Assembly: GCA_029775915.1 (NCBI GenBank)
Contig: JARVKA010000001.1
Span: 98,594 to 162,593, forward strand
Reading direction: 5' to 3'
DNA: 64,000 nt
Source of the DNA: Nitrososphaeria archaeon
GTDB taxonomy: Archaea; Thermoproteota; Nitrososphaeria; Nitrososphaerales; JANXEG01
Below the pieces are notes generated by a model. It was not told the origin of the DNA. It made no database searches and worked only from the letters and a program-made list of their open reading frames with translations. Made by a program: the position numbers and the translations under genes. Positions 45,993 to 64,000 of this stretch are shown here, piece by piece. Numbering within the stretch: the stretch's first letter is position 1; the number at the start of each line of letters is the position of its first letter.

Positions 45993-46002
45993 GTTTATAC
46001 TA

Positions 46003-46320: not shown

Positions 46321-46475
46321 CTTCGCTCAAGATATAAAAAAGGCTACTTATAAATCTTTTACAATGAGCTTGAATGACTTAGATTATATGGTGAATTGAG
46401 CTCTAACACTATTTCATAAAATTAATCCACTATAAATATTTAATTAAATTCTATATTAAATTTAAGGATTAAAGG

Positions 46476-46814: not shown

Positions 46815-46884
46815 TCAAAAGTTTCTTTGTAATTTTGATAGAATTTATGATTGAGTTTTTAATAACCAAATTATTTATAAAAGG

Positions 46885-47886: not shown

Positions 47887-47887
47887 C

Positions 47888-48133: not shown

Positions 48134-48232
48134 TTCAACATAATTTTAAACCCTTTTTATTTAGTAAATTGCGTCGATTTTAATTAAACTTAAATTAAAG
48201 TTACTCATAAATTCCTAAAATGAGTGTAAGCC

Positions 48233-49363
48233 ATGCATAATCGACAAGCCTCAACTTTTAATCATTCAGGGAAATTCGAATCTCCAAATTACGTTAGAAC
48301 AAGTTTAGCTGGTGCGATGATGTTAGGCTTTATACAAGGTCGCTTTTATCGTGATGCGAAATCATATTGCTTAAACCTCTTATTAACTTACAATGATGGT
48401 TGTATTGGTAAATGTGCATATTGTGGACTCTCACGTTCCCGCTCAATTAATGAGCCATGGTTTAAAAAGAGCTTTATAAGAGTGGATTGGCCAATAGTTA
48501 ATCTTGAAGATGTGATTGAAAGAATTCACACAGCTACTTGTGATTTAGAACGTGTTTGTATATCTATGATAACTAACGGTAGAGCAAAATCTGATACTTT
48601 AACTATTGTAAAGAGAATTAGAAGTGTATTCGATCAAATTTCTGTTCTTATAACTCCAACAATTGTGGATAAGGCTTGGTTAGAAGAGGTTAAGGATTTA
48701 GGTGCAGATATGATTGGTGTAGCTATTGATGCTGCAACAAAAAATCTCTTTGATAAGCTTAGAGGTAAAAATGTTGGCGCTCCTCATCGATGGGAACAAT
48801 ATTGGAGCATTTTAAAATCTGCTATAGATATTTTTGGTAAATTCAATGTAGGCATACACTTAATAGTTGGTTTAGGCGAAACTGAGCGTGAGATGGTAAT
48901 GACGATTCAACGTGCTTACGATATGGGTGCTTTAACACATCTTTTCTCATTCTTCCCTGAAGAAGGCTCACCTATGGAGCACCATCCACAACCACCAATA
49001 GGCTCCTATAGGCGTATACAATTGGCAAGATATTTAATTAATAACTCTCTTACTAGAGTTGATAAAATGTTATTCGATTATAAAGGTAGAATTGTAAATT
49101 TTGGCTTGGATGATAAAGAAGTTGAAAGATTCATAAATTCGGGAGAACCATTTATGACATCAGGTTGTAGAAGTAAGAATCGTGAAAATGCATGTAATAG
49201 ACCATACTCAAACTCAACACCATATCAAGCCTTAATAGGAGAGATAAGAAATTATCCTTTTAAACCCGAGCCAAAAGATATTGAGATAATACGATTACAA
49301 CTTTTTGATTATTCTGATATACCAGTTAAAAAATGGATTGACACACCTTACTTAATAGAGTGA
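48233..49363 (+). CDS. Radical SAM protein, LipS1/LipS2-type lipoyl synthase component
   Basis: CxxxCxxC motif CIGKCAYCG. 376 aa. First gene of a radical SAM / radical SAM / LplA / GGR-like cassette; which of LipS1 or LipS2 it is cannot be decided by eye. Confidence 0.6.
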   Translation: MHNRQASTFNHSGKFESPNYVRTSLAGAMMLGFIQGRFYRDAKSYCLNLLLTYNDGCIGKCAYCGLSRSRSINEPWFKKSFIRVDWPIVNLEDVIERIHTATCDLERVCISMITNGRAKSDTLTIVKRIRSVFDQISVLITPTIVDKAWLEEVKDLGADMIGVAIDAATKNLFDKLRGKNVGAPHRWEQYWSILKSAIDIFGKFNVGIHLIVGLGETEREMVMTIQRAYDMGALTHLFSFFPEEGSPMEHHPQPPIGSYRRIQLARYLINNSLTRVDKMLFDYKGRIVNFGLDDKEVERFINSGEPFMTSGCRSKNRENACNRPYSNSTPYQALIGEIRNYPFKPEPKDIEIIRLQLFDYSDIPVKKWIDTPYLIE

Positions 49364-49367
49364 TTAA

Positions 49368-50378
49368 ATGATGCATATACTTGATTATTGCTTTCATCAA
49401 CCTTTTACCAATCTTAAACACTTATTCAATAAAGCATCAGAAATCTTAAAGCGCAACTTTAATGGTAAAATCTTCTTTTACATACCGAGTATGGTAAGAT
49501 ATGAAACTAACTATTATAAATTTAATAAGCGAGCATTTCCAGCGATATCTGTAACAGGTAAAAAGTGCCTTCTTAATTGTGATCATTGTGGAGGAAAACT
49601 TCTTGAGAGTATGATTCCAGCTGAAAAGCCAGAAGAGGTTTATGATATATTAAGAAAGATTTATGAGAATGGTGGGAAAGGTTGTTTAATAAGCGGGGGT
49701 TGTAATCTTGAGGGCTACGTTCCTCTCGAACCTTTTTTACCTATAATAGCGAGGGCTAAACGTGAGATGGATTTAGAGATAGTTATGCATACAGGTTTAA
49801 TTCCACTAGAGATGATAAATGTGCTAATTGATACTAACGTAGATGCTATACTTCTTGATATAATCGGCTCTGAACTCACTCTCAAAAAAGTATGCCATCT
49901 TGAAAAAAAGATAGAAGCATTTGAAAGTTTACTTAAAGCACTTAATAATAAACGATTATCAGTAGTTCCACACATTGTAGTTGGTATGCATTATGGTAAA
50001 ATGTTAGGTGAGTTAATAGCTTTAGATTTAATTTCACGTTATAAGCCTGCTGCAGTTGTGATAGTAGCCTTTATGCCAATTGAAAGTACTAAAATGGCAA
50101 ATATTCAACCACCATCTCCACAAGATATAAGTAGAGTTATGCTTGCTGCTAGATTTTTATTACCATCTACACCCATTGTATTGGGATGTGCTAGACCAAG
50201 AGGTAATCATAGAATAACTACGGATGCTTTAGCGATTAAATGTGGTTTAAATGGTATCGCTTATCCTACTGAGGCTGCTTTTATTATTTGTGAAAATTTA
50301 GGTTATAATACGGTAATTTTTGATAAATGTTGTAGTCTCATTTGGAAGGATATTACTAAATTGAGTCATAAAATATGA
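49368..50378 (+). CDS. Radical SAM protein, LipS1/LipS2-type lipoyl synthase component
   Basis: CxxxCxxC motif CLLNCDHCGG. 336 aa. Starts 4 nt after the previous gene, and its stop overlaps the lplA start. Confidence 0.6.
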   Translation: MMHILDYCFHQPFTNLKHLFNKASEILKRNFNGKIFFYIPSMVRYETNYYKFNKRAFPAISVTGKKCLLNCDHCGGKLLESMIPAEKPEEVYDILRKIYENGGKGCLISGGCNLEGYVPLEPFLPIIARAKREMDLEIVMHTGLIPLEMINVLIDTNVDAILLDIIGSELTLKKVCHLEKKIEAFESLLKALNNKRLSVVPHIVVGMHYGKMLGELIALDLISRYKPAAVVIVAFMPIESTKMANIQPPSPQDISRVMLAARFLLPSTPIVLGCARPRGNHRITTDALAIKCGLNGIAYPTEAAFIICENLGYNTVIFDKCCSLIWKDITKLSHKI

Positions 50379-51976
50379 AATCATTTTGGAGAGTTCTTGA
50401 TACAGGTTTTAAAAGTGCAGCAGAGAATATGGCTTTAGATGATGTAATCTTAGATTGTAAAGCTATGGAATTAATCCCAAATACAATTCGCTTTTTACGC
50501 TTCAAGCCACCATGTGTACTTATAGGGTATCATCAAGATGTTGAACATGAAGTAAGATTGGATTATGTTAAAGCTAACAATATAGATGTTAATAGAAGAA
50601 TTACAGGTGGAGGTGCTATTTACTTTGATGAGAACACAATAGGTTGGGAGATTTTTGCATCTAAGTCTTCCATAGAAGATTGTAATAAAATTGAGGATTT
50701 ATTTGAAATTATGTGTAAAGCGCCTATTAAGGCACTTAGAAAGATTGGAATAAATGCAACATTTAGACCAAAAAATGATATAGAAGTAAATGGTAGAAAA
50801 ATCTCAGGGACTGGTGGTACAGAGAGAGGTTGTGCTTTTTTATTTCAAGGCACTTTATTAACTGATTTTGATATAGAGTCGATGATTAAATCGCTTAGAA
50901 TACCTATTGTAAAGCTGAAGGATAAAGGGATACAGTCAGTTAAGCAAAGAATCACATGTGTGAAATGGGAATTGGGTTATACATTAACTTATGAAGAATT
51001 TAAGCGTTTACTTATTGAATGTTTCGAAGAAACATTCAATATTGAATTAATTGAAGGTGGTTTATCTGAAAAAGAAGAGCGTTTATTATCAGAGAGACTC
51101 CCATACTTTCAATCGCCAGAATGGCTTTATTTAGATCGTCGAGCACCTGAAGAGAGTGGTATAGTTAGAGCTATCGATAAAACAAAAGGTGGATTGATTG
51201 AGGTTACGCTATCATTAGATAAAAGGGCAAAAGTTATTAAATCTATACTTATCACGGGAGATTTTTTTGTCACGCCAGCGAGGGGGATACTCGATTTGGA
51301 AGCTGCACTTAAATTTAGTAGCTACGATGAAGAATCTATTAAAAAGATAGTTACATCAACCTTCAAAAGGTATAATATACAAATAGTTGGGATAGAGCCA
51401 CAAACCATTATCAACTTAATACTTGAAGCTATTAATAAAATGAGATATGAAGAGCTAGGTATAAGCTTAGAGGAAGCTAACAGTATTTACTCTCTTACAA
51501 AAGATCTTTCAAGTCTTTTGAATGGGAATTGTAAATATCTTCTTCTTCCATACTGCTCTAAACTCCTAAGTTGTTCATTACGCAAAGAGGAGGGTTGTTC
51601 ATTATGTGGATTGTGTAGCGTTGGTGAGGCATACAAACTTGGACAAGAAGCTGGCCTTATAGTTAAAACTATACAAAACTTTGAGCATTTAATGGAAACA
51701 TTAAAAGAGATAAAAAAATCAAACTCAAGTTACATAGGTTGTTGTTGTGAAGCATTCTATATAAAGCATTTAGATGATCTTCGAGAAACAAAAGTTCCAG
51801 CTTTACTTATAGATATAGATGATAAAACTTGCTACGATCTTGGTAAAGAGGATGAAGCTTATAAAGGCTCTTTTGAAGGCCAAACAACCTTAAAGTTAGA
51901 CTTATTAAAAAAGCTCATTGAAGCTATAAGATTTAAAGATCATTTTCAAAATAAAGAGAGTGTTCAACTTTCATGA
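50375..51976 (+). CDS. lplA: Lipoate-protein ligase (LplA catalytic + LplB-like accessory domain) fused to a Cys-rich C-terminal domain
   Basis: BPL/LPL catalytic pattern (..LRFKPPCVLIGYHQ.., lipoyl-AMP lysine motif NGRKISGTGG). About 150 extra C-terminal residues carry CSLCGLCSVGEAY and GCCCEAFY. Confidence 0.75.
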   Translation: MKSFWRVLDTGFKSAAENMALDDVILDCKAMELIPNTIRFLRFKPPCVLIGYHQDVEHEVRLDYVKANNIDVNRRITGGGAIYFDENTIGWEIFASKSSIEDCNKIEDLFEIMCKAPIKALRKIGINATFRPKNDIEVNGRKISGTGGTERGCAFLFQGTLLTDFDIESMIKSLRIPIVKLKDKGIQSVKQRITCVKWELGYTLTYEEFKRLLIECFEETFNIELIEGGLSEKEERLLSERLPYFQSPEWLYLDRRAPEESGIVRAIDKTKGGLIEVTLSLDKRAKVIKSILITGDFFVTPARGILDLEAALKFSSYDEESIKKIVTSTFKRYNIQIVGIEPQTIINLILEAINKMRYEELGISLEEANSIYSLTKDLSSLLNGNCKYLLLPYCSKLLSCSLRKEEGCSLCGLCSVGEAYKLGQEAGLIVKTIQNFEHLMETLKEIKKSNSSYIGCCCEAFYIKHLDDLRETKVPALLIDIDDKTCYDLGKEDEAYKGSFEGQTTLKLDLLKKLIEAIRFKDHFQNKESVQLS

Positions 51977-53040
51977 GTGTTGATTATGATGTAATTATCG
52001 TAGGTGCAGGTCCAGCTGGCTCATCTGCAGCTATAAGTTGTGCTAAAGTAAATTCCAAAACACTACTTATTGAACGTAGTTTTTTTGGTAGGCATAAACC
52101 TTGTGGCGGTATTTTACCACCAATTACCCTTTACATCTTTGATGAGTTAGGGATAAATATACCTTCAAAAGTTTTTTGCAATCCTAAAAGCCTTAAGCTA
52201 TTTTACATACCTCCAAGTGGCAAGTTGAATGGAGGAGCTTTAAAATGTTACAAACTTCTCAATATTAATAGAGATTTATTTGATAAATGGTTGGTTGAAG
52301 AGGCTTTAAATAAGGGTGTTGACTTTCAAACAAACTCAACTGTAATATCATTTAAACAAGATGATGATAATGTGGAGGTAAAGTTAAGGTGCCGTGATGA
52401 AAATATAAGAGTAACTGCTAAATATTTACTTGCAGCAGATGGTACTCATTCAATTATAAGAAAGTGCTTTGAAGGGGCTTATCAAAAATTTTTAATCATA
52501 ATGCAAGAATATTGGAAGTGTGAGGGCGAGTTTGAAGATTGTTTTTATACCATTTTAAGTAAAAGAATAACACCAACTTATGGTTATGTTGTGCCGAAGG
52601 ATAACGCCATATTAATTGGAAGTGGTGCTAAAGACTTAAAACAAAGTATTCAAAGTTTAGAGAACTTAAAGAATTGGTTGAAAGAGGAATTTAAATTCAA
52701 GCCCCAATCTTTAATTAAAAGGGAAATTGGTTTTATACCATACGATAAATGTTTTATCGGAATGGGTCGAGTTATACTATTAGGTGACGCTGCAGGTTTT
52801 TGCAATAAATTCTCTGGTGAAGGTGTAAGATTCGCACTTGAAAGCGGATTGATAGCATCAAAAGCGATAGAGGAAGCTGAGAATAAGGGTGTTCAAGTTT
52901 CTGAAGCATACGCTAAGAAAGTTCAACCTTTATTAGAATTTATAGAGAAGACTAAAAGTATCATCAATATAGATACTGATAAGTGGAGAGAAGAGTTCGT
53001 CTTAAATGAACTTAAGCGCTTGAATATTTGGCAAAGATAA
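51973..53040 (+). CDS. Geranylgeranyl-reductase-like FAD-dependent oxidoreductase (LipT-like)
   Basis: FAD motif DVIIVGAGPAGSSAA, and GDAAGF near the C-terminus. 355 aa. The 4-nt start/stop overlap with lplA indicates co-translation. Confidence 0.65.
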   Translation: MSVDYDVIIVGAGPAGSSAAISCAKVNSKTLLIERSFFGRHKPCGGILPPITLYIFDELGINIPSKVFCNPKSLKLFYIPPSGKLNGGALKCYKLLNINRDLFDKWLVEEALNKGVDFQTNSTVISFKQDDDNVEVKLRCRDENIRVTAKYLLAADGTHSIIRKCFEGAYQKFLIIMQEYWKCEGEFEDCFYTILSKRITPTYGYVVPKDNAILIGSGAKDLKQSIQSLENLKNWLKEEFKFKPQSLIKREIGFIPYDKCFIGMGRVILLGDAAGFCNKFSGEGVRFALESGLIASKAIEEAENKGVQVSEAYAKKVQPLLEFIEKTKSIINIDTDKWREEFVLNELKRLNIWQR

Positions 53041-53128
53041 CTTTCATTAGATTATGTAAGATATTAAAACGATTTTTCGATAGGATTAAAAATTAGTGGT
53101 TACCACATTATAATCAGAGGAGTAGAAA

Positions 53129-53449
53129 ATGGAGATAATGGGAAAGGAAGTTTTATGGATTAGGAATGAGGGGCTAAGCATGAAAACGGTTATACGAGTG
53201 GGCATTACAGAACGCCTCACGAATATTCTTAATTCTATTAAAGCTATTCGATTATTATCAGAGGGTAGGTGTGTGAATGAAGATTTCCCATTCGCTTTAA
53301 TCGAGTATGGTAAACGTAAAATACTTTTAAAAAGCCCTATCTCTGGATTTATTCTTGAGGTTAATAAAGAGGTTTTGAAGAACCCACAATTGATTAATAA
53401 CGATCCTTATGGTAAAGGTTGGCTCGCTTTAATAAAACCTACACCTTAG
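53129..53449 (+). CDS. Minimal GcvH-like lipoyl-carrier protein (LbpA-like)
   Basis: 106 aa. IEYGKRKILLKSPISG has the lysine 8 residues before P-x-SG, as in the H-protein ESVKA..P-x-SG segment. C-terminal NNDPYGKGWL. Lacks the usual N- and C-terminal extensions. Confidence 0.65.
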   Translation: MEIMGKEVLWIRNEGLSMKTVIRVGITERLTNILNSIKAIRLLSEGRCVNEDFPFALIEYGKRKILLKSPISGFILEVNKEVLKNPQLINNDPYGKGWLALIKPTP

Positions 53450-54301
53450 GTGTTTAAATTGGTTGAATTACCAATAGTGATTGCTTCCGCATTCTTCACG
53501 ATTGGTACGATTATATTTATAATTGGCGTATTATTGAATTTGAGGATTTGGTTACTCGGTTCAGAGAGCATTATTGGGACCTTTAAAGAAGTCATATCAA
53601 CTCTCATAAACCCAAAGTTTTGGTCCACAATTCTTAAAACATTTATAACAAAAATTTTCGGCCAATATAAGCTTTACAAAATCGATAATTTAAGAGGGAT
53701 TGAAAAATGTTGCTTTGTAACTTTTTATGTGTTAGTCATACTTGCAAATCATATAGCAGCTGATATAGCGAGTGGTGCTAAAACATTAACAGAATTTATT
53801 ATAGAGTTTTTCAAATCACCATTCTTTCCAGGTTATATATTCTCCGAGTTAGGTGCTGAATTAAATGGTTTTTGGATAGCATTTCTCTTTATTGATAATT
53901 TCGCAATGGTAATGGTATTTCTCTCAGAAGGTTTAGTGATGTATAGAAGATTTATTAAAAAATATTTTATATTCGCCACAAAAGAGGATGTAATCGGCTT
54001 ACTATTACCAGTAATTTGGTTTATCTTTCGTTGGATCGCTGAAGCAGCAACTATTGTAAAGTTTGGTACACCATCTGGTAGTCATTATATGTTTATAGCT
54101 TACTTAATCTCAAGACCACTTACATTACTTACACCAAATCAAGTTGAGATTCTTTATAGTATTATGTGGCCGGCTTCAGGCTTCTTCCTTAGTCTTTTCT
54201 TTGGTTTAATACCCTATACTGGCAGGTTATGGCATGCTTTCGCTGGACCTATAACTATGTTACTTAACTCTGTACCATACAAAAAGGAGGTATTGAGGTA
54301 A
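53450..54301 (+). CDS. Polytopic membrane protein, NarI/HdrE/DsrM-like (putative cytochrome b quinone-interacting subunit)
   Basis: 283 aa with about 6 TM segments. C-terminal GRLWHAFAGP resembles the NarI-family R-L-x-H-x-x-x-x-P motif, and further His residues lie in TM segments (ANHIAAD, GSHYMF). The GTG start abuts the stop of the GcvH-like gene, and its stop overlaps the next start (TAATG). Confidence 0.5.
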   Translation: MFKLVELPIVIASAFFTIGTIIFIIGVLLNLRIWLLGSESIIGTFKEVISTLINPKFWSTILKTFITKIFGQYKLYKIDNLRGIEKCCFVTFYVLVILANHIAADIASGAKTLTEFIIEFFKSPFFPGYIFSELGAELNGFWIAFLFIDNFAMVMVFLSEGLVMYRRFIKKYFIFATKEDVIGLLLPVIWFIFRWIAEAATIVKFGTPSGSHYMFIAYLISRPLTLLTPNQVEILYSIMWPASGFFLSLFFGLIPYTGRLWHAFAGPITMLLNSVPYKKEVLR

Positions 54302-55545
54302 TGAAACAAACTAAAATCCCACTTAGTGTGAAGCAATTAATAGAGTTAGATGGGTGTGCGAGATGTGAGTTATGTAGAGAATTTTGCTCATTATATGCGT
54401 TATTAAATGAAAACCCACACCCACTCAAATTCCCAACTAGTACTGTAGCTGTAATTAAACAATTTAGATCGATTTTACGGGATCAATTTGGATTAAAAGC
54501 GAAGCTATTAAGAAGTAAACCTAAGATTAAAGAAAAGTTATGGATGCTCGCTGATGCATTATTTTTATATTGTACAACTTGTGGTAGATGTAAAGTGGTA
54601 TGCCCACTCGGTATTGACACATGGTCTCTTTTAAACTCTGTAAGAGAATACTTTATGAATAATTTCACAAGCCAATATCCTACACATTGTGTTATAGATT
54701 TTATATCAAACACGATTAATACAACTATACAAAATTCAGGCAATATCTTTAATGTATCAAATGCATCACGTCATGATTGGGCTTTATACACAGGTGCTGA
54801 TATTCAAGTAAAGGATAATGCAAAAGTCGTATACTTTGTGGGTTGCGTATCTTCTTACCAAGGTAGAGCTCAAGATATAGCTCATGCGATAACAGCGATT
54901 CTCAATTCAGTGGGAGAAGATTGGACTTTATTAAAGGATGAATGGTGTTGTGGACACCCACTCACTATAAGTGGTGCTGGGAATAAAGCAAAGAGTATTG
55001 CAGAGCATAATTTAAGGATGATAAGGGATGTTGGAGCTAAAATGGTTATAACAGGATGTCCAGGGTGCTATTTAGCCCTTAAGCATGAATATCCAAAGAT
55101 TTTAGGTAAACCTGTAGAGTTTGAAGTATTGCACTTTACAGAACTCTTAAATATTTATCTTAATGAGGGAAAATTAAAACCAATAAAACTCGATGGGAAA
55201 GTAACTTATCATGATCCATGTGAATTGGGAAGGTTGGGTGGTGTTTTAAATGAGCCACGACGAATTATTAATACCTTTACTAATGGATTGTTAGAACCTT
55301 ATGGTTCAGGTATGGATGGTATATGTTGTGGTTCTGGGGGGTTGATAAAAGCTACAAATCCTTCATTGGCTGACTTACTTGCAATTAAAAGGTTAGATAT
55401 GCTTATGGAAACTAAATCGAAGTTAATACTTTCCGCATGCCCTACATGTGTACAAAGCTTAAGTAAGGTAGCTATGGATAAAAATAAGGAATTACGTGTT
55501 ATAGATTTAGCTGAGTTAGTTGCTCAACAACTGGGCTTGATATAA
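54301..55545 (+). CDS. HdrD/DsrK/GlcF-like Fe-S protein (two 4Fe-4S ferredoxin motifs + two CCG domains)
   Basis: CARCELCREFC and CTTCGRCKVVCP clusters. CCG motifs WCCGHP and CCGSGG, plus YHDPCELGR and SACPTC. 414 aa. Confidence 0.8.
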   Translation: MKQTKIPLSVKQLIELDGCARCELCREFCSLYALLNENPHPLKFPTSTVAVIKQFRSILRDQFGLKAKLLRSKPKIKEKLWMLADALFLYCTTCGRCKVVCPLGIDTWSLLNSVREYFMNNFTSQYPTHCVIDFISNTINTTIQNSGNIFNVSNASRHDWALYTGADIQVKDNAKVVYFVGCVSSYQGRAQDIAHAITAILNSVGEDWTLLKDEWCCGHPLTISGAGNKAKSIAEHNLRMIRDVGAKMVITGCPGCYLALKHEYPKILGKPVEFEVLHFTELLNIYLNEGKLKPIKLDGKVTYHDPCELGRLGGVLNEPRRIINTFTNGLLEPYGSGMDGICCGSGGLIKATNPSLADLLAIKRLDMLMETKSKLILSACPTCVQSLSKVAMDKNKELRVIDLAELVAQQLGLI

Positions 55546-55548
55546 AGT

Positions 55549-55980
55549 TTACGTTAATTTAAGCCTTTGTAACTCACTTTTAATAAACTCCTCAAGTTCT
55601 TTGAGATCAGATATTAAAGCCTTCTTATCTTCCTCAAAATTTGATGGTTGTATAACAGCTATCCATCCAGCCCCATAAGGGTCTTCATTAAGTAACTTAG
55701 GTTGACTCTTTAAATTCTCATTCACTTCTACAAGTGTTCCTGAGACTGGTGAGATTAATGGGCCGACCCACTTCCCCGTCTCTATTGTTCCTAAAGGCTT
55801 TCCTTTAACAACTAATTTACCTTTAGGCAAAAGTCGGATGAAAGTTATTGGCCCTGCCGATCTTTGAGCAACATCAGTTACTCCAACACGCACCTTTCCA
55901 TTCTCTAACTTAACCCACATATGGTCTTTTGAGTAATATAACCCTTCTTTAAACTCGAATTTTTCAAGTAACTTTACCAA
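55549..55980 (-). CDS. gcvH: Glycine-cleavage H-protein family lipoyl-carrier protein
   Basis: 143 aa. HMWVKLENGKVRVGVTD, lipoyl-lysine segment IETGKWVGPLISPVSG, and NEDPYGAGWI. Last gene of the glcD-glcE-glcF-like operon. Confidence 0.8.
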   Translation of the reverse strand: MVKLLEKFEFKEGLYYSKDHMWVKLENGKVRVGVTDVAQRSAGPITFIRLLPKGKLVVKGKPLGTIETGKWVGPLISPVSGTLVEVNENLKSQPKLLNEDPYGAGWIAVIQPSNFEEDKKALISDLKELEEFIKSELQRLKLT

Positions 55981-56059
55981 GTTTACCCCAAAAATTTTTC
56001 AACTTAATGGTTTATTAATTTTATGCATTCTTCTAAGAGTTTTTTATTATACAGTAATT

Positions 56060-57217
56060 TTACATTAAACCTAATCTTTGAGCGATGAGTTCTGCTATAT
56101 CAATTACTTGTAGAGCTTTATTCTTACGTGAGGTAGCATCAGCAAGGCTTTGATAACAAGTTGGACAAGCTGAGATTATAACCTCAGCACCTGTTTTAAT
56201 GAGCATTTCTAATCGCTTATTAGCTATACTCTCAGATAATTGTGAATCGGTAACTTTTAAAAGCCCCCCTCCGCCACAACAAAATCCTTCTTTACCACGC
56301 TCTATTGGTTCTACAAATTTATCACTTATAGATTTAATTACCCTTCTTGGCTCATTTATAATCCCTAAAATCCTTCCCAACTCACATGGATCGTGATAAG
56401 TTACTTTACTCTCAAATTTAGGTATTTTTAGCTTTCCTTTCTTTATATATTCGTCTAAAATTTGTGAAAAGTGTAAAACTTCGAAGTTAAGTTTTCGCCC
56501 CAATACCTCTGGATACTCTTTTTTTAACGCTAAGCAACAACCCGGACATCCGCTAACTACCTTCGTTGCACCAGTTTCCTCTATCATCTTTACGTTATGC
56601 TCTGCAACTTTTTTGAACTCTTTTGTAGCGCCTTCTAACTTTAATGGGTGTCCACAACACCATTCATCCTTTAATAAAGTCCAATCTTCTCCAACGTAAT
56701 TTAAGATTGATGCTATAGCTTGAGCGACTCCTTGTATCCTTCCAGAGTATGATGTGACACAACCAACAAAATATACCATATCGGCTTTATCTTTTATTGG
56801 AGCTTCAACGCCTGTATAAATTACCCAATCCTTTCTTAATGTGTTATCCATCATAAAGATATTCTTCGCATTATTTATAGTATTTACCAATTGCTCAGCC
56901 CCAAGAGGTACTGCATTTGCTTCAGCCATAATTTCACGAGTGATAAACATTATATCCGTATATTTTACTGCGGATGGACAAGCGATTTCACAATTCGCAC
57001 ACATAGTGCATTTATAAAGGTGATTCGCCACATCCTTAGCTATATCGATTCTTTTATCAACCATAGCTCTGGTTAAATAAAGCCTCCCTCTTGGTGAATC
57101 TGCCTCAATTCCTAATACTCTATAAGTTGGGCAACTTTGAAGGCAGAAGCCACAATGAACACAACGAAGAATTAATTTGTAATAATCGGATTGGTCGAGT
57201 TTATTAAATTTAGCCAA
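56060..57217 (-). CDS. glcF: GlcF/HdrD-like Fe-S subunit (two 4Fe-4S motifs + two CCG domains)
   Basis: CVHCGFCLQSCP, CTMCANCEIACP, WCCGHP, CCGGGG and SACPTC. Close paralog of 54301-55545 in the C-terminal two thirds. Confidence 0.8.
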   Translation of the reverse strand: MAKFNKLDQSDYYKLILRCVHCGFCLQSCPTYRVLGIEADSPRGRLYLTRAMVDKRIDIAKDVANHLYKCTMCANCEIACPSAVKYTDIMFITREIMAEANAVPLGAEQLVNTINNAKNIFMMDNTLRKDWVIYTGVEAPIKDKADMVYFVGCVTSYSGRIQGVAQAIASILNYVGEDWTLLKDEWCCGHPLKLEGATKEFKKVAEHNVKMIEETGATKVVSGCPGCCLALKKEYPEVLGRKLNFEVLHFSQILDEYIKKGKLKIPKFESKVTYHDPCELGRILGIINEPRRVIKSISDKFVEPIERGKEGFCCGGGGLLKVTDSQLSESIANKRLEMLIKTGAEVIISACPTCYQSLADATSRKNKALQVIDIAELIAQRLGLM

Positions 57218-57218
57218 A

Positions 57219-58571
57219 TCAAATCCCTCCTATAAATCTACCTGGATTCAATATCCCTTTCGGATCAAATCGATCTTTAATAGCCTTCATTAAGAAAAAG
57301 TCCTTTCTAATAGGTCCCCATACATCAACTTTTTCTTTAACACTTAATGGTGCGCATTCAACCACTAAACTACTCGCAGAGCCTATACTTAATACATAAG
57401 CTCTTAACTCTTCTATCGCTTTTACAAGCTCGTATGGATTTTCGGAATTAAAATAAGTATAAAGAATACCAAGCCCCAAATGGGCTGTTATAGAATATTG
57501 TAAAGCATATTTCTCAGAAATCTTTTGTGTAAAATCCATAACATCCCCAACTTTAGAGATTAAAGTACTGATCTTACATCTAATTGAGAACTTATTTGAT
57601 GATAAATTAGGATATTCTTGTATTTTCTTCCATAATGATTCATGCTCACTACCATTTATGGAGAATGCAGTTATTGAATCATGCTTCTTAACAATTTCTA
57701 ACAACTCAGAAATCCTTCTTCTCATACTATCTTTAGTTATGCTTAATACCTTTAAAGCTAGTAAATACCCCTTAGAGATATTCAAACTATTTAATATCTC
57801 ACATGAGTTAGGATCGAATCCTTCTATAGCTGAAGGCCCTATACCTATAGATGAGTGGCTTACCATTAATACTTCTTTATACGCTTTAACAAAATCGTTA
57901 ATTGAGTTAAATACTGCAAGAAAGCTTTCTTCAAACTCTGGTAAAGGTGCGAGTTTAAAAGTTACTTGAGTTATTACACCGAGTGTACCGATTGAACCTA
58001 TGTATAATTTCTTTATATCATAACCAGCTACATTTTTTACAACTTTTCCACCAAACTTCGTTAAAGTCCCGTCAGAGTTTGCTACTTTAATACCCAACAA
58101 AAGATCTCTTACCCCGCCGTAAAGATGGCGTATAGGTCCAAAAGAATTTGAGGCAACTACACCTCCTAATGTAGCTAATGATGAGTATGGTGGATCTAAT
58201 GGTAAAAATTGACCTTTATTAACTAAAACTTTTTGAAGTTCATCTAAAATAATTCCTCCTTCAGCTGTAACTACAAGTTCTTCTGGCAAATACTCAATTA
58301 TTTTATTCAACCTTTTGAGTAAAAGTATTATATCTACCCTTTTAGGTATATTACCTAAACTCATCATAGTCCCCCCTCCCCAAGGTATAATTGAAATACC
58401 CTCATCATTCGCTCTCTTTAAAATCTCAGCTACTTCCTCCATCGATTTTGGAATAACTACAGCTTTTGGTTTAAGACCATCAACTTCGAACTTTTCAACT
58501 TCCTCACTAGTAAGCGCTTCTGAATTTGAGATTACACGATTTATTGCTAACTCTGAATTTTTATTTGACAT
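57219..58571 (-). CDS. glcE: FAD-binding PCMH-type oxidase subunit, GlcE-like
   Basis: 450 aa. FAD-binding segment IIPWGGGT. C-terminal ..DPKGILNPGRF typical of FAD-linked oxidases. Confidence 0.7.
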   Translation of the reverse strand: MSNKNSELAINRVISNSEALTSEEVEKFEVDGLKPKAVVIPKSMEEVAEILKRANDEGISIIPWGGGTMMSLGNIPKRVDIILLLKRLNKIIEYLPEELVVTAEGGIILDELQKVLVNKGQFLPLDPPYSSLATLGGVVASNSFGPIRHLYGGVRDLLLGIKVANSDGTLTKFGGKVVKNVAGYDIKKLYIGSIGTLGVITQVTFKLAPLPEFEESFLAVFNSINDFVKAYKEVLMVSHSSIGIGPSAIEGFDPNSCEILNSLNISKGYLLALKVLSITKDSMRRRISELLEIVKKHDSITAFSINGSEHESLWKKIQEYPNLSSNKFSIRCKISTLISKVGDVMDFTQKISEKYALQYSITAHLGLGILYTYFNSENPYELVKAIEELRAYVLSIGSASSLVVECAPLSVKEKVDVWGPIRKDFFLMKAIKDRFDPKGILNPGRFIGGI

Positions 58572-58581
58572 ATAAAAAACC

Positions 58582-59988
58582 TCACGAAGCTAAAATCTTT
58601 ACCTCCTTTTCAGGGAAAATCTTACCAGGATTGCATAAGCCTTTAGGATCGAAGATTTCTTTGATAAAGAGCATACGCTTCAATTCATCTTTACTATATT
58701 GTACGGGCATTAACTCAGCTTTTTCAATACCTACTCCATGCTCGCCAGTAATCGTCCCACCAACATCTAAACATAATTTGAGAATATCAAGGCCTAATTT
58801 CAAAGCCTCTTGCTCCTTACCCTCAACTCTTGGATCGTAAAGAATTATAGGATGAAGATTCCCCTCTCCAGCATGAAATACATTAGCGATCATGAAACCA
58901 TGCTCCTCGCCCCACTTTCTTATAATAGGCATAACTTCAGGGAGTTTGGATCTAGGTATTGTACCATCATCAACTACATAACTAGGTGCAAGATTGCCCA
59001 TAGATCCGAAAGCTGCTTTACGACCAGCCATTAACTTAGCCATGCCATCAGGATCCTTCGCCATCTCTACACTACGTGCATGATTCTTCTTACAAATCTC
59101 TATAATCTTCTCACTTTGCACATCTAACTCATCTTCAAACCCATCAACTTCGAATAGTAAGATCGCTTCTGCATCTAAAGGCAAGCCACAAGCTTTAACA
59201 CCAGATTCAACAGCCTTAATAGCATACTTATCCATGAATTCTATAACAGCTGGAAGCTTACCTACTGCTATAACTTCAGAAACGGTATTTGACGCATCTA
59301 CCAAAGAGTCGAATATTGCTAGAATAACCGCAGTAGCTGGTGGTTTACGTAAAATCCTTACAACAGCTTTTGTTACTATACCTAAAGTCCCTTCAGAACC
59401 TACCATAAGTCCAACTAAATCGTAGCCTGGTGGATCGAGTGCTTTTCCACCCAATTCTAAAACATCTCCATTAGGTAAAACCATTTCTAATCCCAATACA
59501 TGATTCGTTGTAACACCATATTTGAGGCAATGATTTCCTCCAGCATTATGAGCTATATTACCACCTATGCTCGATACTGTATAGCTTGCAGGATCTGGAG
59601 CGTAAAAGAAGCCCTTTTCCGATGCAACTGCGGTTATTTGTGGTGCAGTAACATAAGGCTCAACAACAACCCTTTGATTATCAAAATCAACTTCTAAGAT
59701 GCTATTCATTCTTGCAAATGCAATAACAACCCCTCCCCTTATTGGTACAGCGCTACCACTTAACGCAGTCCCAGCACCCCTCGCTAAGTATGGAATATTG
59801 TATTTATTACAAATATTTACAATATTCACAACTTCATCCCTTGAGGTTGGTAAAACTACAACATCGGGCATACTTTTGAAGAATGTTTGACCATCACATT
59901 CATATACCATAAGCTCTTCTTTTTTACGAAGTAAACGATCAATACCTACAATACTCTCTAACTCTTTTAAAATATGATCACTAATCAT
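58582..59988 (-). CDS. glcD: FAD-linked oxidase, GlcD / D-lactate dehydrogenase-like
   Basis: 468 aa. RGAGTALSG FAD motif, GEHGVG, and C-terminal DPKGLCNPGK. Confidence 0.85.
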   Translation of the reverse strand: MISDHILKELESIVGIDRLLRKKEELMVYECDGQTFFKSMPDVVVLPTSRDEVVNIVNICNKYNIPYLARGAGTALSGSAVPIRGGVVIAFARMNSILEVDFDNQRVVVEPYVTAPQITAVASEKGFFYAPDPASYTVSSIGGNIAHNAGGNHCLKYGVTTNHVLGLEMVLPNGDVLELGGKALDPPGYDLVGLMVGSEGTLGIVTKAVVRILRKPPATAVILAIFDSLVDASNTVSEVIAVGKLPAVIEFMDKYAIKAVESGVKACGLPLDAEAILLFEVDGFEDELDVQSEKIIEICKKNHARSVEMAKDPDGMAKLMAGRKAAFGSMGNLAPSYVVDDGTIPRSKLPEVMPIIRKWGEEHGFMIANVFHAGEGNLHPIILYDPRVEGKEQEALKLGLDILKLCLDVGGTITGEHGVGIEKAELMPVQYSKDELKRMLFIKEIFDPKGLCNPGKIFPEKEVKILAS

Positions 59989-60524
59989 TTTATTTAATCA
60001 CCATTTTATGATTTAACATCTCAATCGAAATAATTAGCGGCATCATCTACTTTATATCATTTGCGCTTATAGAATTAGAGATTGTCAATAAAGTAATAAA
60101 ATTATTCACCCTTTATTTAGTGTAAACGAGCAGAAAAAATTTAATTTTTTCTAAAAAAATCTAACACTAAAAATTTTCAAAAACTCAAGAATTTTTAACA
60201 TTTACACGATGCTCTTGTATTTGTTTGAATGGATTTAAATTTAGATATAAATGATTTTTCAATTTTCATTACCATCTTCACGATCTCATAGAATTATAAT
60301 ATTAAATATATGGGAATATTTTTGCCTTAGTTAATGCCTCAATATACTCAAAAATTACAATCCTCTTTGGTAATTTGGTAATATTATTTTACAATTATAG
60401 GAACTTTGATTGTTAAGATGATGAACTCGAATAAGAATAAATTAAATTTTTGTCCATTTTTGCTTACCTTATCTTAACAAACTTTTCGCAAAACTTTTAT
60501 ATAGATTTTACTAAATTTTAAAGT

Positions 60525-60710
60525 ATGCCAACAGTTCATATACATATGTATGAGGGAAGAACAAAAGAGCAAAAGCGCAATCTGGTTAAGAATGTGACTG
60601 ATGCGATTGTAAAGAGCCTTGATGTTAAGCCTGAAGCAGTTACTATCTTTCTTCATGAAATATCAAAAGAGAATGTTGCAAAAGCTGGAAAGATTGTTGC
60701 TGAGGCTTAA
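60525..60710 (+). CDS. 4-oxalocrotonate tautomerase family protein
   Basis: 61 aa. MPTVHIHMYEGRT has the catalytic Pro1 after Met removal, with a beta-alpha-beta pattern. Confidence 0.8.
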   Translation: MPTVHIHMYEGRTKEQKRNLVKNVTDAIVKSLDVKPEAVTIFLHEISKENVAKAGKIVAEA

Positions 60711-60780
60711 ACATTATCTATGTGATAAGGTCGTAGTAGACATAATGGGAGTGCTTTGTATTATAAAGTAGCACTAATTT

Positions 60781-61650
60781 TTAGTGTATTTTATCTTTAA
60801 AGATAGTTGAAGCAATTATTAATGTTAGTGAAGAAAAGATTAGAAATGAGCCTAAAATTTTGTTTAAAGTGAGTACCTCATTAAATATTAATACTCCTAT
60901 GGAGACGCCCAAAGCTGGTTCAATTAAAGTGATGAATCCTACTTTACTTGCCTCAATCAATTTAACGCTCTTAAATAAAAGATAATAAGCCAAAGCTCCT
61001 CCAATTAAACCTAAATAAATAGCGCATACTAACCATAAACCTAAACTTGGCTTTGAGATAAATGATGAATATAATGTTAAAATTAAGAATGCCCAAAATG
61101 CTGATCCTGTTGAAATATCAAACGTTGCAAAGCCTTTCGTACCCAAATATTTACCATAAACTGTGATAAGTGCGTAAAGAAAACCTGAGGAAATAGCTGA
61201 TATTAAACCTAAAGCACTCATTGTATTATCCCTCATCCCTATATTATCACTTAAAAAGAATACACCAATTATCGCTAAAATCAAACTAACTATTTTATAC
61301 CTTGTTATATGCTCATTAAATAAAAATTTTGAGAGAATCATCACCCATGCTGGTGAAGTATATAGTAAAAGTACCGCTACCGATATGCCGACTTCTTGAA
61401 TAGCTTTAAAATAAGTTATTTGAAATGGGGCTATGATTAATAATCCAAATGCTATAAGCTCTTTCTTGAAGAAGTTTTTAAATCTTCCTAAAACTATTAA
61501 TGGAATACTGGTAAAGAGTGTTCTTATAGCACCTATCCATAAAATATCCCCTCCAAGATAAATTCCAATTTTTATAGTGGCACCTACGGTAGACCAAATA
61601 CATCCTGCACTTATAGCGTATAAAAGTCCTATAATCCCTTTAGTTCTCAT
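60781..61650 (-). CDS. EamA/DMT-family transporter
   Basis: 289 aa with about 10 TM segments in two similar halves. Confidence 0.7.
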   Translation of the reverse strand: MRTKGIIGLLYAISAGCIWSTVGATIKIGIYLGGDILWIGAIRTLFTSIPLIVLGRFKNFFKKELIAFGLLIIAPFQITYFKAIQEVGISVAVLLLYTSPAWVMILSKFLFNEHITRYKIVSLILAIIGVFFLSDNIGMRDNTMSALGLISAISSGFLYALITVYGKYLGTKGFATFDISTGSAFWAFLILTLYSSFISKPSLGLWLVCAIYLGLIGGALAYYLLFKSVKLIEASKVGFITLIEPALGVSIGVLIFNEVLTLNKILGSFLIFSSLTLIIASTIFKDKIH

Positions 61651-61830
61651 AATTTTTCAGTTTTTAATAACAAAGCTTACATTAATCACTTTTGCTAACA
61701 TTCTTTAATCAATATCATAGATCATTTTATTATTTTTCCTTTTCTCACATAAAAGAAAATTGAAGAAGTATATGAAATGGATTTAATGAACAAACATAAA
61801 AATCACTTAGTTTTTGATATATTAAATTGC

Positions 61831-63072
61831 TTATATGAGTTTCTTTTGTAAAGATTCGATTACTATTTTCCCATAAAGACCATCATATCCAGGTATTACT
61901 TTAATGCTATCCTCCCTAACCGCTTGTATAGTTATTGCTATTTCTTTACCAGCTACCCTTTCAATCTCAGCCAATGGTGCAAATATCATAACTGAAAATT
62001 CATTTCCAAAAGCTTTTATGAGATTATCATAAATCATTTGAACACTTTTTACATAAGGTGATGAAGCTCCAATAACAGTAGCAATAACTTCATGAAGTGG
62101 GAGTAAATGATGGAACCAAGGTACATCCTTAGGCATATATCCTTGTGGTCTATCAGCCAATTCTTCAACCCTTTGCTCAACACCTTTCGTTAATATCTTT
62201 CCACACTTTGGACATTTATTACCATGTTTAATCGCTTCAATACCTGACATTGATACTTCACAATTTCTATGGCCGCTATAATGATACTTACCATATTCAG
62301 GCTTTGTCTCTATTGTAGATAGGAATCGTTTAGGGTCTTTTGTACGAATCACATTTAATATCTCAATATAGCTTAACTCATCTAACTCAAATACATTTGC
62401 TTCACGCCCTAAACGGTAAGGTTGGGGTGAATGGCTATCACTATTTGAAATTAATGTATATCGATCAAGCTCACTTACTCTCCAATTCATTGGTGGATCG
62501 CTTGAAAGGCCAGTCTCCAATGCATGAATATGATGAACTTGATCTGCATAACATTCCTTTATTGAATCATATCCACTATTAGCACCCAAAATACTCCACC
62601 ATGGTGTCCAAATATGTGCTGGAATAATCTCAATAAGCTCAGATATTTGCTTTATTTTCTCAACAAGCTCTGGTGATGTTAATGTTAAAACTGGTCTACC
62701 ATCAACTTCTAAATCACCACTCTTTCTTAATACATCAGAGATTTGAGCTGCTACATCTAAAGATGGAATTAAGAGTAAATGATGAATTTTACGAGTCTTA
62801 CCAGCATCAAAATAAACTGTAGCTACCTCTGTAGTTATCATAAACCGTATGGGTAATTGAGGCTTTTCCTTTAATTTTAAAAGATTCGTATCACCATCTG
62901 GAATTAATAATTCTGAAACTTCTTTAAACCATTTTGGATGTGTTATATCACCAGTACCAACAATTTGAAGCCCTTTTATCATAGCGTAATAAGCTATTGT
63001 GTGAATATTCATATTCACACTTGTTGCTGCACTATACTTTGAATGAATATGTAAATCAGCAAATATTTTCAT
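61831..63072 (-). CDS. Endonuclease Q-like PHP-domain nuclease
   Basis: ADLHIHSKYS PHP motif, NSDSHSP, zinc finger CPKCG, and C-terminal PGYDGLYGKI. Colinear with Pyrococcus EndoQ as I remember it. Confidence 0.7.
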   Translation of the reverse strand: MKIFADLHIHSKYSAATSVNMNIHTIAYYAMIKGLQIVGTGDITHPKWFKEVSELLIPDGDTNLLKLKEKPQLPIRFMITTEVATVYFDAGKTRKIHHLLLIPSLDVAAQISDVLRKSGDLEVDGRPVLTLTSPELVEKIKQISELIEIIPAHIWTPWWSILGANSGYDSIKECYADQVHHIHALETGLSSDPPMNWRVSELDRYTLISNSDSHSPQPYRLGREANVFELDELSYIEILNVIRTKDPKRFLSTIETKPEYGKYHYSGHRNCEVSMSGIEAIKHGNKCPKCGKILTKGVEQRVEELADRPQGYMPKDVPWFHHLLPLHEVIATVIGASSPYVKSVQMIYDNLIKAFGNEFSVMIFAPLAEIERVAGKEIAITIQAVREDSIKVIPGYDGLYGKIVIESLQKKLI

Positions 63073-63112
63073 CTAACCCTTCCCAAATATGTATTTTTAA
63101 CATCATAAATTT

Positions 63113-63748
63113 TTATGTTTCAATTTGAGATGGAAGCCATTTCTTAAGAAGCTTTGCCCAATTAATTTTCACCATAGCGTAAATGATTATAATAACGATA
63201 ATTAAAAAGATTATCGCTACAATTATACCTAAAGCTGGATCGATCGTTCCCTCCATAAAAGGCTCAATAAAAGTTATTCCAAACATTCGAGCGCCAAAAG
63301 CAACTATGCTTATGAGAATTATCTTACCAGAAAATGTAGCGATAATGAAGCGCCAAAGGCTATATTTTGTGAAACCTAATGGAATATACACAATATCATC
63401 GGGTATTGGTGTTGCTGCTGCTATAAATGCAGCAATCCAACCATATTTTCCTACTAAAGTTTGGAGTGGTTGAATATTCTTTCTAGTCTTTTCACTAAGT
63501 AACCTTTGCCCTTCATAACTTACTCTAAATATCGCAGTTTTTGCTATAGTGGCACCAATTGCACTCGATAAAGCGATTAATAACGGGTCGAATGAAGGGT
63601 TAAGGCTAGCGAGTGCGACTGGTACAACATAAGGCGCAGGTATAAAAACTATGAAATTTGCAAGAAGGCTGAATACGAATATACCAAGATAGCCATAAGT
63701 GATTAAGTTCACATCGAACCATAACCAAAGATTTTGTAAAGAATTCAT
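63113..63748 (-). CDS. DedA / VTT-domain membrane protein
   Basis: 211 aa. TM segments plus the ..ATPIPDDIVYIPLGFTKYSLWRFIIATFSGK.. pattern of the DedA family. Confidence 0.55.
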   Translation of the reverse strand: MNSLQNLWLWFDVNLITYGYLGIFVFSLLANFIVFIPAPYVVPVALASLNPSFDPLLIALSSAIGATIAKTAIFRVSYEGQRLLSEKTRKNIQPLQTLVGKYGWIAAFIAAATPIPDDIVYIPLGFTKYSLWRFIIATFSGKIILISIVAFGARMFGITFIEPFMEGTIDPALGIIVAIIFLIIVIIIIYAMVKINWAKLLKKWLPSQIET

Positions 63749-63786
63749 TTCTTAATTACATTCCTTTATGAAGCTCATAAAACGTA

Positions 63787-64000
63787 TTAATAAGCTTTAC
63801 CAAAGTATGCAACAACACTAGCTTTATCACCACAATAAATGCAATTTGAAAAGACTTTTTCCTTTTTTAATGGTATGAGGCGAATATCAGCCCCAGTCTC
63901 TTCTTTTATCTTTTTCTCACATACAGGTTTTTGACACCAACATGCTTTCAATAAACCACCCTTACTATCCAAAAGCCTTTTAAATTCTTCATAATCTTTT
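63787..64000 (-). CDS. proS: Prolyl-tRNA synthetase, C-terminal fragment (gene continues beyond the window end)
   Basis: Archaeal-type ProRS C-terminal zinc domain ..CWCQKPVCEKKIKEETGADIRLIP...CIYCGDKASVVAYFGKAY, ending in Tyr. The frame is open upstream to position 64000 (..KDYEEFKRLLDSKGG). Confidence 0.75.
   Translation of the reverse strand, partial: KDYEEFKRLLDSKGGLLKACWCQKPVCEKKIKEETGADIRLIPLKKEKVFSNCIYCGDKASVVAYFGKAY

Follow-up and report, generated by a model that had tools for sequence, protein, structure and literature searches.

Four adjacent genes in a Caldarchaeales archaeon appear to join a soluble three-subunit 2-hydroxyacid dehydrogenase to a lipoyl-protein of its own. They lie in a stretch of 64,000 nucleotides, positions 98594-162593 of contig C2 (hereafter the window, whose own numbering is used below), in a genome of 1.47 Mb, 34% G+C and 10 contigs. 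The genes encode a GlcD-type catalytic flavoprotein (GlcD468), a GlcE-type flavoprotein (GlcE450), an Fe-S subunit with two CCG domains (GlcF385) and an H-protein-like lipoyl carrier (GcvH143; Table 1). An initial annotation had recorded four minus-strand genes 1-79 nt apart, and open reading frames with gaps of 10, 1 and 79 nt are indeed found there. It had further proposed that the H-protein may be the electron acceptor or the partner of the CCG subunit. The partnership of the carrier with a CCG enzyme is well supported by comparative sequence evidence, namely by the gene neighbourhood of carriers of this type, by the clade to which this one belongs and by a shared 4.85-kb block. The acceptor role is not established, as transfer in that direction would be uphill. 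The fuller reading, to which we give about even chances, is that the lipoyl arm is the substrate of the CCG site, and that the carrier shuttles between the cytoplasmic dehydrogenase and the membrane.

GcvH143 had been described as a full-length H-protein. The peptide quoted for it, IETGKWVGPLISPVSG, does occur in the translation. The GCV_H model covers 121 of 122 positions, the lysine of the peptide, K70, matches the lipoyl-lysine of the solved H-proteins 3ift and 3hgb, and the protein shares the GcvH fold and lipoyl-lysine hairpin (PDB matches 5e-23). Around this lysine the sequence is IETGKWVGPLISP, with the signature E-T-G-K-W-x-G-P, and E67, K70, W71, G73 and P78 are invariant across 30 homologs (51-91% identity). 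The likeness to glycine-cleavage H-proteins ends there. GcvH143 is basic (isoelectric point, pI, 9.0), has no cysteines, and reaches 100 bits on the TIGR00527 gcvH equivalog, under the cut-off of 115.85, although it passes the broad GcvH subfamily model NF002270 (126.1 bits, cut-off 117). The SD-x-Y that follows the lysine in canonical H-proteins is replaced by W-V-G-P. In the pea H-protein, the Asp four residues after the lysine helps to hold the aminomethyl arm. Three GCV_H genes are present in the genome, and one of them, at C3:219646-220074, has all the canonical features: the motif VESIKTVADLYAP, a pI of 4.9 and 145.9 bits on TIGR00527.

None of gcvT, gcvP and lpd is found in the window, as had been noted, and all are encoded elsewhere in the genome. 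The gcvT gene is at C6:42913-44076, gcvPA/PB at C3:153359-156250 and lpd at C2:330195-331601 (540 bits on TIGR01350, cut-off 408.8), far from the window's carrier or on other contigs. Because the genome holds a complete glycine cleavage system (GCS) with a separate canonical gcvH on C3, GcvH143 is dispensable for glycine cleavage. A complete GCS dependent on this one H-protein was what the initial annotation had named as counting against its proposal, and the genome does not present that case. Furthermore, a genome of the same genus (G001) retains the canonical gcvH and has no GcvH143-type copy. Judged by its sequence, GcvH143 is not a glycine-cleavage H-protein, and for this reason protein-bound lipoate is probably the redox partner of the heterodisulfide-reductase-like Fe-S subunit in the cassette.

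The company kept by such carriers in other genomes points in the same direction. We fetched 80 public loci by H-protein peptide patterns alone, with 105 H-proteins among them, and annotated their open reading frames by BLASTP against the proteins of this genome. Copies with K followed by W, F or Y were taken as the K-W type (58 copies), and those with ES-x-K-x-x-S-D as the canonical type (31 copies). The initial annotation had suggested gathering co-occurrence statistics for gcvH and CCG genes. A CCG protein is encoded within 5 kb of 36 of the 58 K-W-type copies, and of 20 of the 23 that have at least 5 kb of flank on both sides, with gcvT or gcvP near none of them (0/58 and 0/23). Among canonical copies the picture is reversed, with a CCG protein within 5 kb in 2/31 and gcvT or gcvP nearby in 16/31. 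Fisher tests give p = 3e-7 for the CCG association and p = 2e-9 for the GCS association, over loci that are not phylogenetically independent. At least seven phyla are represented, with loci from Nitrososphaerota, Asgard archaea, Bathyarchaeia, Thermoplasmatota, Chloroflexota, Actinomycetota and Bacillota.

A maximum-likelihood tree was built from 112 H-proteins. One starred clade (99/93) unites all 17 GCS-linked copies and the genome's C3 copy, and GcvH143 falls outside it. The tandem LbpA1/LbpA2-like pairs of sHdr-type clusters form a separate starred clade of 33 rows. GcvH143 is placed in a starred clade of seven rows, together with orthologs from Ca. Terraquivivens/Wolframiiraptoraceae and with short paralogs, including the 106-aa copy of the window. 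This clade is nested in a weakly supported group of 22 carriers, which includes Thor- and Heimdallarchaeota, Desulfosporosinus and a Thermacetogeniaceae metagenome-assembled genome (MAG); 16 of the 22 are CCG-linked and none is GCS-linked. Because the deep nodes of the tree are weak, it is compatible with a common origin of GcvH143 and LbpA, which the two may share.

When the neighbours at 17 loci of this group were clustered without a prior family list, only two families were common to 14 of the loci, a VAO-fold flavoprotein and a Fer4+2xCCG protein. Caldarchaeales, Thor- and Heimdallarchaeota, and Bacillota are all represented among these loci. Of the exceptions, two have a short flank on the relevant side, and the third (L066) has about 10 kb of downstream flank in which no partner was detected. 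The carrier, flavoprotein and CCG genes of Heimdallarchaeota run into one another, with overlaps of 1 and 4 nt. In Desulfosporosinus, lipA overlaps the carrier gene that follows it, and 21 nt beyond the carrier gene comes the flavoprotein gene, then the CCG gene.

The Desulfosporosinus triad is part of a larger acetoin-dehydrogenase-like operon (Desulfosporosinus sp., L137 3726-19378). This encodes E1 alpha, E1 beta, an NAD-kinase-like (NADK-like) protein and E2, and continues with LplA, LipA, the K-W-type carrier, the flavoprotein, the CCG protein, LplA, a second H-protein, LplA, LipT, LipS2 and LipS1. No E3 gene was found in this operon. Because the triad closes an E1/E2/ligase operon that lacks E3, its position suggests that a flavoprotein+CCG pair can act as a dihydrolipoyl oxidase. 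CCG enzymes as a substitute for a missing L-protein are not required in the present genome, which has a bona fide lpd; from the Desulfosporosinus operon, the idea may stay alive for other lineages. The NADK-like gene is also met beside canonical H-protein genes. In this genome, gcvH on C3 lies between a divergent OsmC-like gene and an NADK-like (AcoX-like) gene (C3:218975-221207, L001), and the pairing of GcvH with an NADK-like gene recurs in G001, G009, G013 and a Methanomethylicia contig (gcvT-gcvH-NADK-like). A pairing of Hdr and H-protein genes without a K-W-type carrier is present in L044 (3987-8289; G013:C3), where HdrA (with an MvhD domain), HdrC and HdrB are followed by a GcvH of the canonical clade.

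Within the order, the carrier and its CCG partners occur together. Among 41 Caldarchaeales genomes, a K-W-type carrier (at least 64% identity) is present in only four, this one and three of a single family (f13). CCG proteins of the GlcF385/HdrD414 clade occur in exactly the same four, the other genomes having EtfD-like proteins of 600-730 aa or weaker matches. In G001, the flanks match at 77-80% DNA identity and the whole block of 11 genes between them (Table 1) has no match; neither a K-W-type H-protein nor a GlcF385-clade CCG protein was found in G001 at the protein level. There, contig C42 runs from the right flank into genes that in the present genome lie 36 kb away, at C2:197885-200949.

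A smaller unit is delimited by a Logan metagenome contig (L046), whose carrier is 91% identical to GcvH143. The two sequences share only the 4.85-kb cassette (L046 5923-10749), which consists of glcD, glcE, the Fe-S gene, the carrier gene and the final 320 nt of the CCG gene that converges on it. Beyond the cassette, the sequences differ on either side. One breakpoint lies inside the 3' end of the convergent CCG gene, and the convergent CCG gene of L046 is a different paralog. Of all the evidence, this four-gene block speaks most strongly for a link of the carrier with the dehydrogenase, and not solely with the membrane complex encoded next to it. The flanks of L046 code for a TRAP transporter, an ICL/PEP-mutase-like protein and an SdhA-like flavoprotein.

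The cassette had been called GlcDEF-type, which holds for GlcD and GlcE, as both group with their E. coli counterparts in trees, and fails for the Fe-S subunit, which is not a GlcF ortholog. GlcD468 has 43% identity to E. coli GlcD, and the two fall together in the tree with 100/99 support. The His/His/Glu-His columns that it has in common with solved D-2-hydroxyacid dehydrogenases are intact, in the motifs HAGEGNLH and GEHGVG, and its best PDB matches are a glycolate oxidase (9qgz) and LctD (7qh2). Its scores (476 bits against 567.9 on TIGR00387 glcD; also 465 against 897) are both under the cut-offs. Over the FAD domain, GlcE450 has 46% identity to E. coli GlcE. In the tree it joins this protein at 99/99, though on a long branch, and it scores 172.5 bits on PRK11282 GlcE, under the cut-off of 284. 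The His/His/Glu-His columns are not conserved in it.

GlcF385 has 26% identity to E. coli GlcF and 142.5 bits against the GlcF cut-off of 333, and the tree places GlcF far off. Its closer relatives are the carrier-linked CCG protein of Wolframiiraptoraceae, at 51-54% identity, and HdrD414, to whose clade it is sister and with which it shares 45% identity and the same cysteine pattern. Like HdrB/HdrD-type proteins, it has two five-cysteine CCG sets, both complete (C153, C187, C188, C224, C227 and C278, C313, C314, C351, C354), and two ferredoxin-type CxxCxxCxxxC motifs. Its PDB matches are EtfD 9ojn (1.9e-29), HdrB (5e-11) and HdrC (4e-6). Because GlcF385 has both complete CCG sets yet no hydrophobic membrane segment, it should need a soluble partner. 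The single carrier-linked flavoproteins of other lineages fall in clades other than those of GlcD468 and GlcE450. The type found in Terraquivivens, Bacillota and Heimdallarchaeota has lost the hydroxyacid site, and the Thorarchaeota type may keep it around a 12-residue insertion. We had considered GlcE450 as the ortholog of these single flavoproteins, which is ruled out by its place with E. coli GlcE. Since GlcD and GlcE group with E. coli, the flavoproteins of other lineages differ and GlcF385 groups with carrier-linked proteins, the trees indicate that the flavoprotein module changes from lineage to lineage around a constant carrier and CCG protein.

The two CCG genes of the window also share a stretch of DNA. 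The 48 nt that code for GEDWTLLKDEWCCGHP, the first CCG motif, are exactly identical, in inverted orientation, at 54913-54960 (HdrD414) and 56645-56692 (GlcF385), within a 237-nt inverted repeat that is 70% complementary. Because the proteins are otherwise 45% identical, this suggests gene conversion between the paralogs.

We propose the following mechanism. GlcD468 would hold the catalytic site for a D-2-hydroxyacid/2-oxoacid couple of the glycolate or D-lactate type, GlcE450 would be a second FAD subunit without such a site, and GlcF385 would carry two [4Fe-4S] clusters and two CCG (non-cubane cluster) sites. GcvH143 would receive lipoate on K70 from LipS1/LipS2-LplA-LipT, the products of neighbouring genes. 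The lipoyl-lysine arm would then enter a CCG site of GlcF385, on the model of HdrB with CoM-S-S-CoB, DsrK with DsrC and sHdr with LbpA. At this site, one-electron steps would interconvert the dithiol and the disulfide (dithiolane) form, and electrons would travel between it and the hydroxyacid site, in one direction or the other, by way of the cubane clusters and the flavins. Memb283 and HdrD414 would connect the same carrier to the quinone pool, and the carrier would thus be a protein-bound dithiol/disulfide shuttle between the cytoplasmic dehydrogenase and the membrane.

Which way this shuttle would run may be judged from standard potentials. With lipoate at about -290 mV, pyruvate/D-lactate at -190 mV and glyoxylate/glycolate at -90 mV, transfer from the dihydrolipoyl group to a 2-oxoacid, as in TfrAB, or to quinone would be favoured. 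Transfer from the hydroxyacid to the lipoyl group would need a pull, for example from the membrane complex or from an OsmC-type peroxidase. The carrier being the acceptor is thus no likelier than the opposite flow or than a pull from some consumer downstream. The basic pI of GcvH143 supports a carrier role, because it fits the charge rule by which LbpA has a basic or neutral surface and GcvH an acidic one (Kumpel et al. 2026 preprint).

Several points weigh against the shuttle as proposed. By textbook potentials, transfer from the hydroxyacid to lipoate is uphill by 100-200 mV. The neighbour counts carry the phylogenetic non-independence mentioned above. E. coli GlcDEF and the genome's second GlcD+CCG pair (C4:78426-81182) work without an H-protein. 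In Wolframiiraptoraceae, the nearest other family, the carrier ortholog is monocistronic and divergent from an OsmC-like gene, and the H-like gene directly before flavoprotein+CCG codes for R or M where the lipoyl lysine would be. Finally, the carrier gene may have its own promoter, because the 79-nt spacer before it has a TATA-like box (ATAAAATTAATAAA) and a T5 run. The spacer also has GGGGT just before the TTG start, and it is 93% identical in L046. A scan for bacterial promoters and terminators found no excess over shuffles, and is uninformative, as the models are bacterial and the host is archaeal.

One alternative survives best, although we consider it unlikely. The carrier could work only with Memb283-HdrD414, and perhaps with other enzymes, the GlcDEF-like enzyme being an ordinary glycolate/D-lactate dehydrogenase that passes its electrons elsewhere and the adjacency a matter of block history. 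In line with this, GlcD and GlcE are typical of their kind, the 79-nt spacer could contain a promoter, and in G013, G027 and G038 the carrier ortholog has no dehydrogenase gene upstream and meets the HdrD414 ortholog tail-to-tail. It is difficult to reconcile with L046, though, where exactly glcD-glcE-Fe-S-carrier is shared and the convergent CCG gene is another paralog. Moreover, GlcF385 belongs to the carrier-linked CCG clade and not to GlcF, has no membrane anchor, and no other acceptor gene lies nearby.

Slightly less likely still is a lipoyl-dependent antioxidant system, in which the reduced carrier feeds OsmC/Ohr-type peroxidases and the CCG enzymes re-reduce it with electrons of hydroxyacids, H2 or quinol. 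Peroxide reduction would provide a pull for the uphill step from hydroxyacid to lipoate, and lipoyl-dependent Ohr/OsmC peroxidase activity is established (Cussiol 2010, as related in the Kumpel 2026 preprint). In G013 and G027 the carrier ortholog has a divergent OsmC-like gene beside it, and in this genome the canonical gcvH has another. However, the block of the window has no OsmC gene, the OsmC link is not seen at the Thor, Heimdall and Bacillota loci, and detoxification needs no dedicated membrane quinone module.

Among described systems, the nearest to this one are the sHdr-LbpA systems of sulfur oxidisers such as Hyphomicrobium denitrificans and Thioalkalivibrio (Cao et al. 2018, PMC6067878; Tanabe et al. 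2023, PMC10332631), in which LbpA has been proposed to hold the sulfane sulfur that CCG proteins oxidise. The likeness is substantial. In both, a GcvH-like lipoate-binding protein gene stands beside CCG (HdrB-type) genes and dedicated LipS1/LipS2-Lpl-LipT genes, K-W follows the lipoyl lysine, the carrier is basic, and a canonical GcvH and a second ligase coexist with it. Nevertheless, we regard the same function here as improbable. The HdrA, hyp and HdrC1B1/C2B2 set is absent from the block, and the CCG protein, a fusion of the HdrC and HdrB types, is combined with GlcD/GlcE flavoproteins, whose intact hydroxyacid site would have no role in sulfur oxidation. A genome-wide search found no DsrE and a single TusA, on contig C7, while sHdr-LbpA systems are reported always to occur with such sulfur transferases (PMC11094781). 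LbpA was defined by two conserved cysteines, N- and C-terminal, with some archaeal exceptions (Cao et al. 2018, PMC6067878); neither is present in GcvH143, and both are present in the sHdr-linked copies of the same alignment. Lastly, GcvH143 lies outside the LbpA1/2 clade and groups weakly with the Thor, Heimdall and Bacillota carriers. Most improbable of all is an ordinary GCS H-protein beside a glycolate dehydrogenase (glycolate to glyoxylate to glycine to cleavage). Such a C2-type route has been proposed, and parts of it tested, for Thermococcus kodakarensis (PMC11032457), and GcvH143 does pass NF002270. However, the second gcvH passes the equivalog model that GcvH143 fails, G001 keeps only that canonical gene, W-V-G-P replaces SD-x-Y, and GcvH143 lies outside the clade of all gcvT/P-linked copies, its type being found near gcvT/P in 0/58 cases.

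Table 1. Features of the cassette and of the surrounding block, in window positions
Feature	Positions	Strand	Size and evidence
GlcD468, GlcD-type catalytic flavoprotein subunit	58582-59988	-	468 aa; FAD_binding_4 1.2e-40, FAD-oxidase_C 8e-59 (Pfam)
GlcE450, GlcE-type flavoprotein subunit	57219-58571	-	450 aa; FAD_binding_4 2e-32, weak FAD-oxidase_C (Pfam)
GlcF385, soluble HdrC+HdrB-like Fe-S subunit	56060-57217	-	385 aa; Fer4_8 1.4e-12, two CCG domains 1.1e-32 (Pfam)
Spacer between Fe-S gene and carrier gene	55981-56059	-	79 nt, A/T-rich
GcvH143, putative K-W-type LbpA-like lipoyl carrier	55549-55980	-	143 aa; GCV_H 9.6e-39 (Pfam)
HdrD414, HdrD-like CCG protein	54301-55545	+	414 aa; Pfam; convergent with carrier gene, stop codons 4 nt apart
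Memb283, HdrE/NarI/EtfD-N-like membrane subunit	53450-54301	+	283 aa; several hydrophobic segments
Short H-like paralog	53129-53449	+	106 aa; GCV_H 1.6e-21
Dedicated lipoate assembly genes LipS2, LipS1, LplA-DUF116 fusion, LipT	48233-53040	+	NCBIfam
11-gene block missing from same-genus genome G001	48127-60488		12.4 kb; DNA search and contig comparison
Cassette glcD-glcE-Fe-S-carrier, common to window and contig L046	55222-60062		4.85 kb; blastn, 91.7% identity

Besides the cassette, the block encodes a second pairing of a CCG protein with an H-like protein within 7 kb, as the initial annotation had pointed out: the 106-aa H-like frame, Memb283 and HdrD414, all on the plus strand. The chance of two H genes lying directly beside CCG genes is roughly 1e-4, given three GCV_H genes and about six CCG genes in 1.47 Mb. 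The lipoate assembly genes LipS2, LipS1, LplA-DUF116 and LipT are 2.5-7 kb from the carrier gene. By NCBIfam, LipS2 scores 234.5 bits, under its 270-bit cut-off, LipS1 scores 232.8 bits, over its 230-bit cut-off, the block LplA matches the lipoate-protein ligase family, and LipT matches the GG-reductase family. LipS1 and LipS2 were not found elsewhere in the genome. A second LplA (247 aa) adjoins E2 on contig C5, where it belongs to an E1/E2 2-oxoacid dehydrogenase. An Rfam search of window 46000-64000 gave no match. A 61-aa open reading frame at 60525-60710 on the plus strand (MPTVHIHMYEGRTKEQK...) looks like a member of the 4-oxalocrotonate tautomerase family; it lies within 792 nt upstream of glcD and is 80% conserved in G001.

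Memb283 resembles the N-terminal part of a fused 724-aa EtfD-like protein of the same genome, and its orthologs precede HdrD in G013, G027 and G038. The region C3:9551-13812 comprises an acyl-CoA dehydrogenase gene, the fused membrane+HdrD gene and an EtfB-like gene, and Memb283 with HdrD414 look like a split form of the fused protein without ETF genes. In L037 (5857-10459; G013:C1), genes for the small and large subunits of a [NiFe] hydrogenase are directly upstream of the Memb283 and HdrD414 orthologs, in an Isp1/Isp2-like arrangement, and the gene of the lipoylatable carrier is convergent with them. The 106-aa paralog of the window retains the lysine. Because its orthologs have R or M at the lipoyl position, its function is doubtful. 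The short H-like paralogs of Wolframiiraptoraceae with R or M there (L037 13838-14233; L050 3330, 7079) lie directly before flavoprotein+CCG or membrane+HdrD genes, and may be non-lipoylated adaptor subunits.

The cassette resembles several other known systems in part. With E. coli GlcDEF (b2979, b4468, b4467) it shares the order D-E-F, a GlcD with catalytic motifs, a GlcE FAD subunit without them, and a third subunit with two ferredoxin-type motifs and two CCG domains. In contrast, no subunit of the window reaches its NCBIfam equivalog cut-off, the Fe-S subunit is of another clade, and the E. coli operon has no H-protein gene. Thiol:fumarate reductase of Methanothermobacter (TfrAB) also combines a soluble flavoprotein with a Fer4+CCG subunit, with the dithiol/disulfide at the CCG site and an organic acid at the flavin, and TfrB is the top NCBIfam match of GlcF385 (177.9 bits, far under the cut-off of 385). 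Here, however, the flavoprotein has the VAO/GlcD fold and not that of fumarate reductase, and the thiol would be protein-bound lipoate instead of CoM-SH and CoB-SH. On the membrane side, Memb283-HdrD414 is comparable to HdrDE of Methanosarcina, DsrMK(JOP)/DsrC and EtfD/EMO, where an HdrD-like CCG protein on a membrane haem-b subunit links a soluble carrier (heterodisulfide, DsrC or ETF) to the quinone pool, and DsrC is a precedent for a protein-bound disulfide as CCG substrate. The difference is that the proposed carrier is a lipoylated H-protein, and that this carrier type is also paired with a soluble dehydrogenase.

The general idea of GcvH as a disulfide carrier is already in print. For Culexarchaeia, which are non-methanogens, Kohtz et al. 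2022 (PMC9723716) suggested that the GcvH encoded within the Ehe hydrogenase/Hdr cluster could carry an unknown disulfide for HdrB. That was a genomic remark on one clade, tied to a hydrogenase and HdrABC, with no GlcDEF-type enzyme, signature analysis or test. We found no description in the literature of an H-protein with a GlcD/GlcE/CCG enzyme, the Culexarchaeia remark being the one related statement found, and GlcD, glycolate and HdrD are not mentioned in Tanabe 2023 or Cao 2018. The pairing described here extends the theme of LbpA and CCG proteins.

Many Hdr-like CCG proteins belong to organisms in which neither coenzyme M nor coenzyme B is made. Which thiol/disulfide is their natural substrate is a question of long standing, settled to our knowledge solely for DsrC and, partly, for LbpA of sulfur oxidisers. 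At the present locus, intact catalytic residues reveal the substrate class of the flavoprotein with which a CCG subunit is linked, and thus an assayable substrate couple. The carrier linked with the same subunit is distinguishable from the cell's housekeeping H-protein. Tentatively, the lipoate of K-W-type H-proteins may be a general dithiol/disulfide substrate of HdrD/GlcF-type CCG enzymes outside methanogens and sulfate reducers, and the block may encode an undescribed chain of hydroxyacid dehydrogenase, lipoyl shuttle and membrane HdrDE-like quinone reductase. If so, this chain would be the lipoate counterpart of CoM-S-S-CoB/HdrDE, DsrC/DsrMK or ETF/EtfD. Lipoate would gain a further role, as a mobile protein-bound electron carrier, and many of the "GlcD/HdrD" pairs annotated in archaeal MAGs as lactate-dependent heterodisulfide reductases would need to be re-read.

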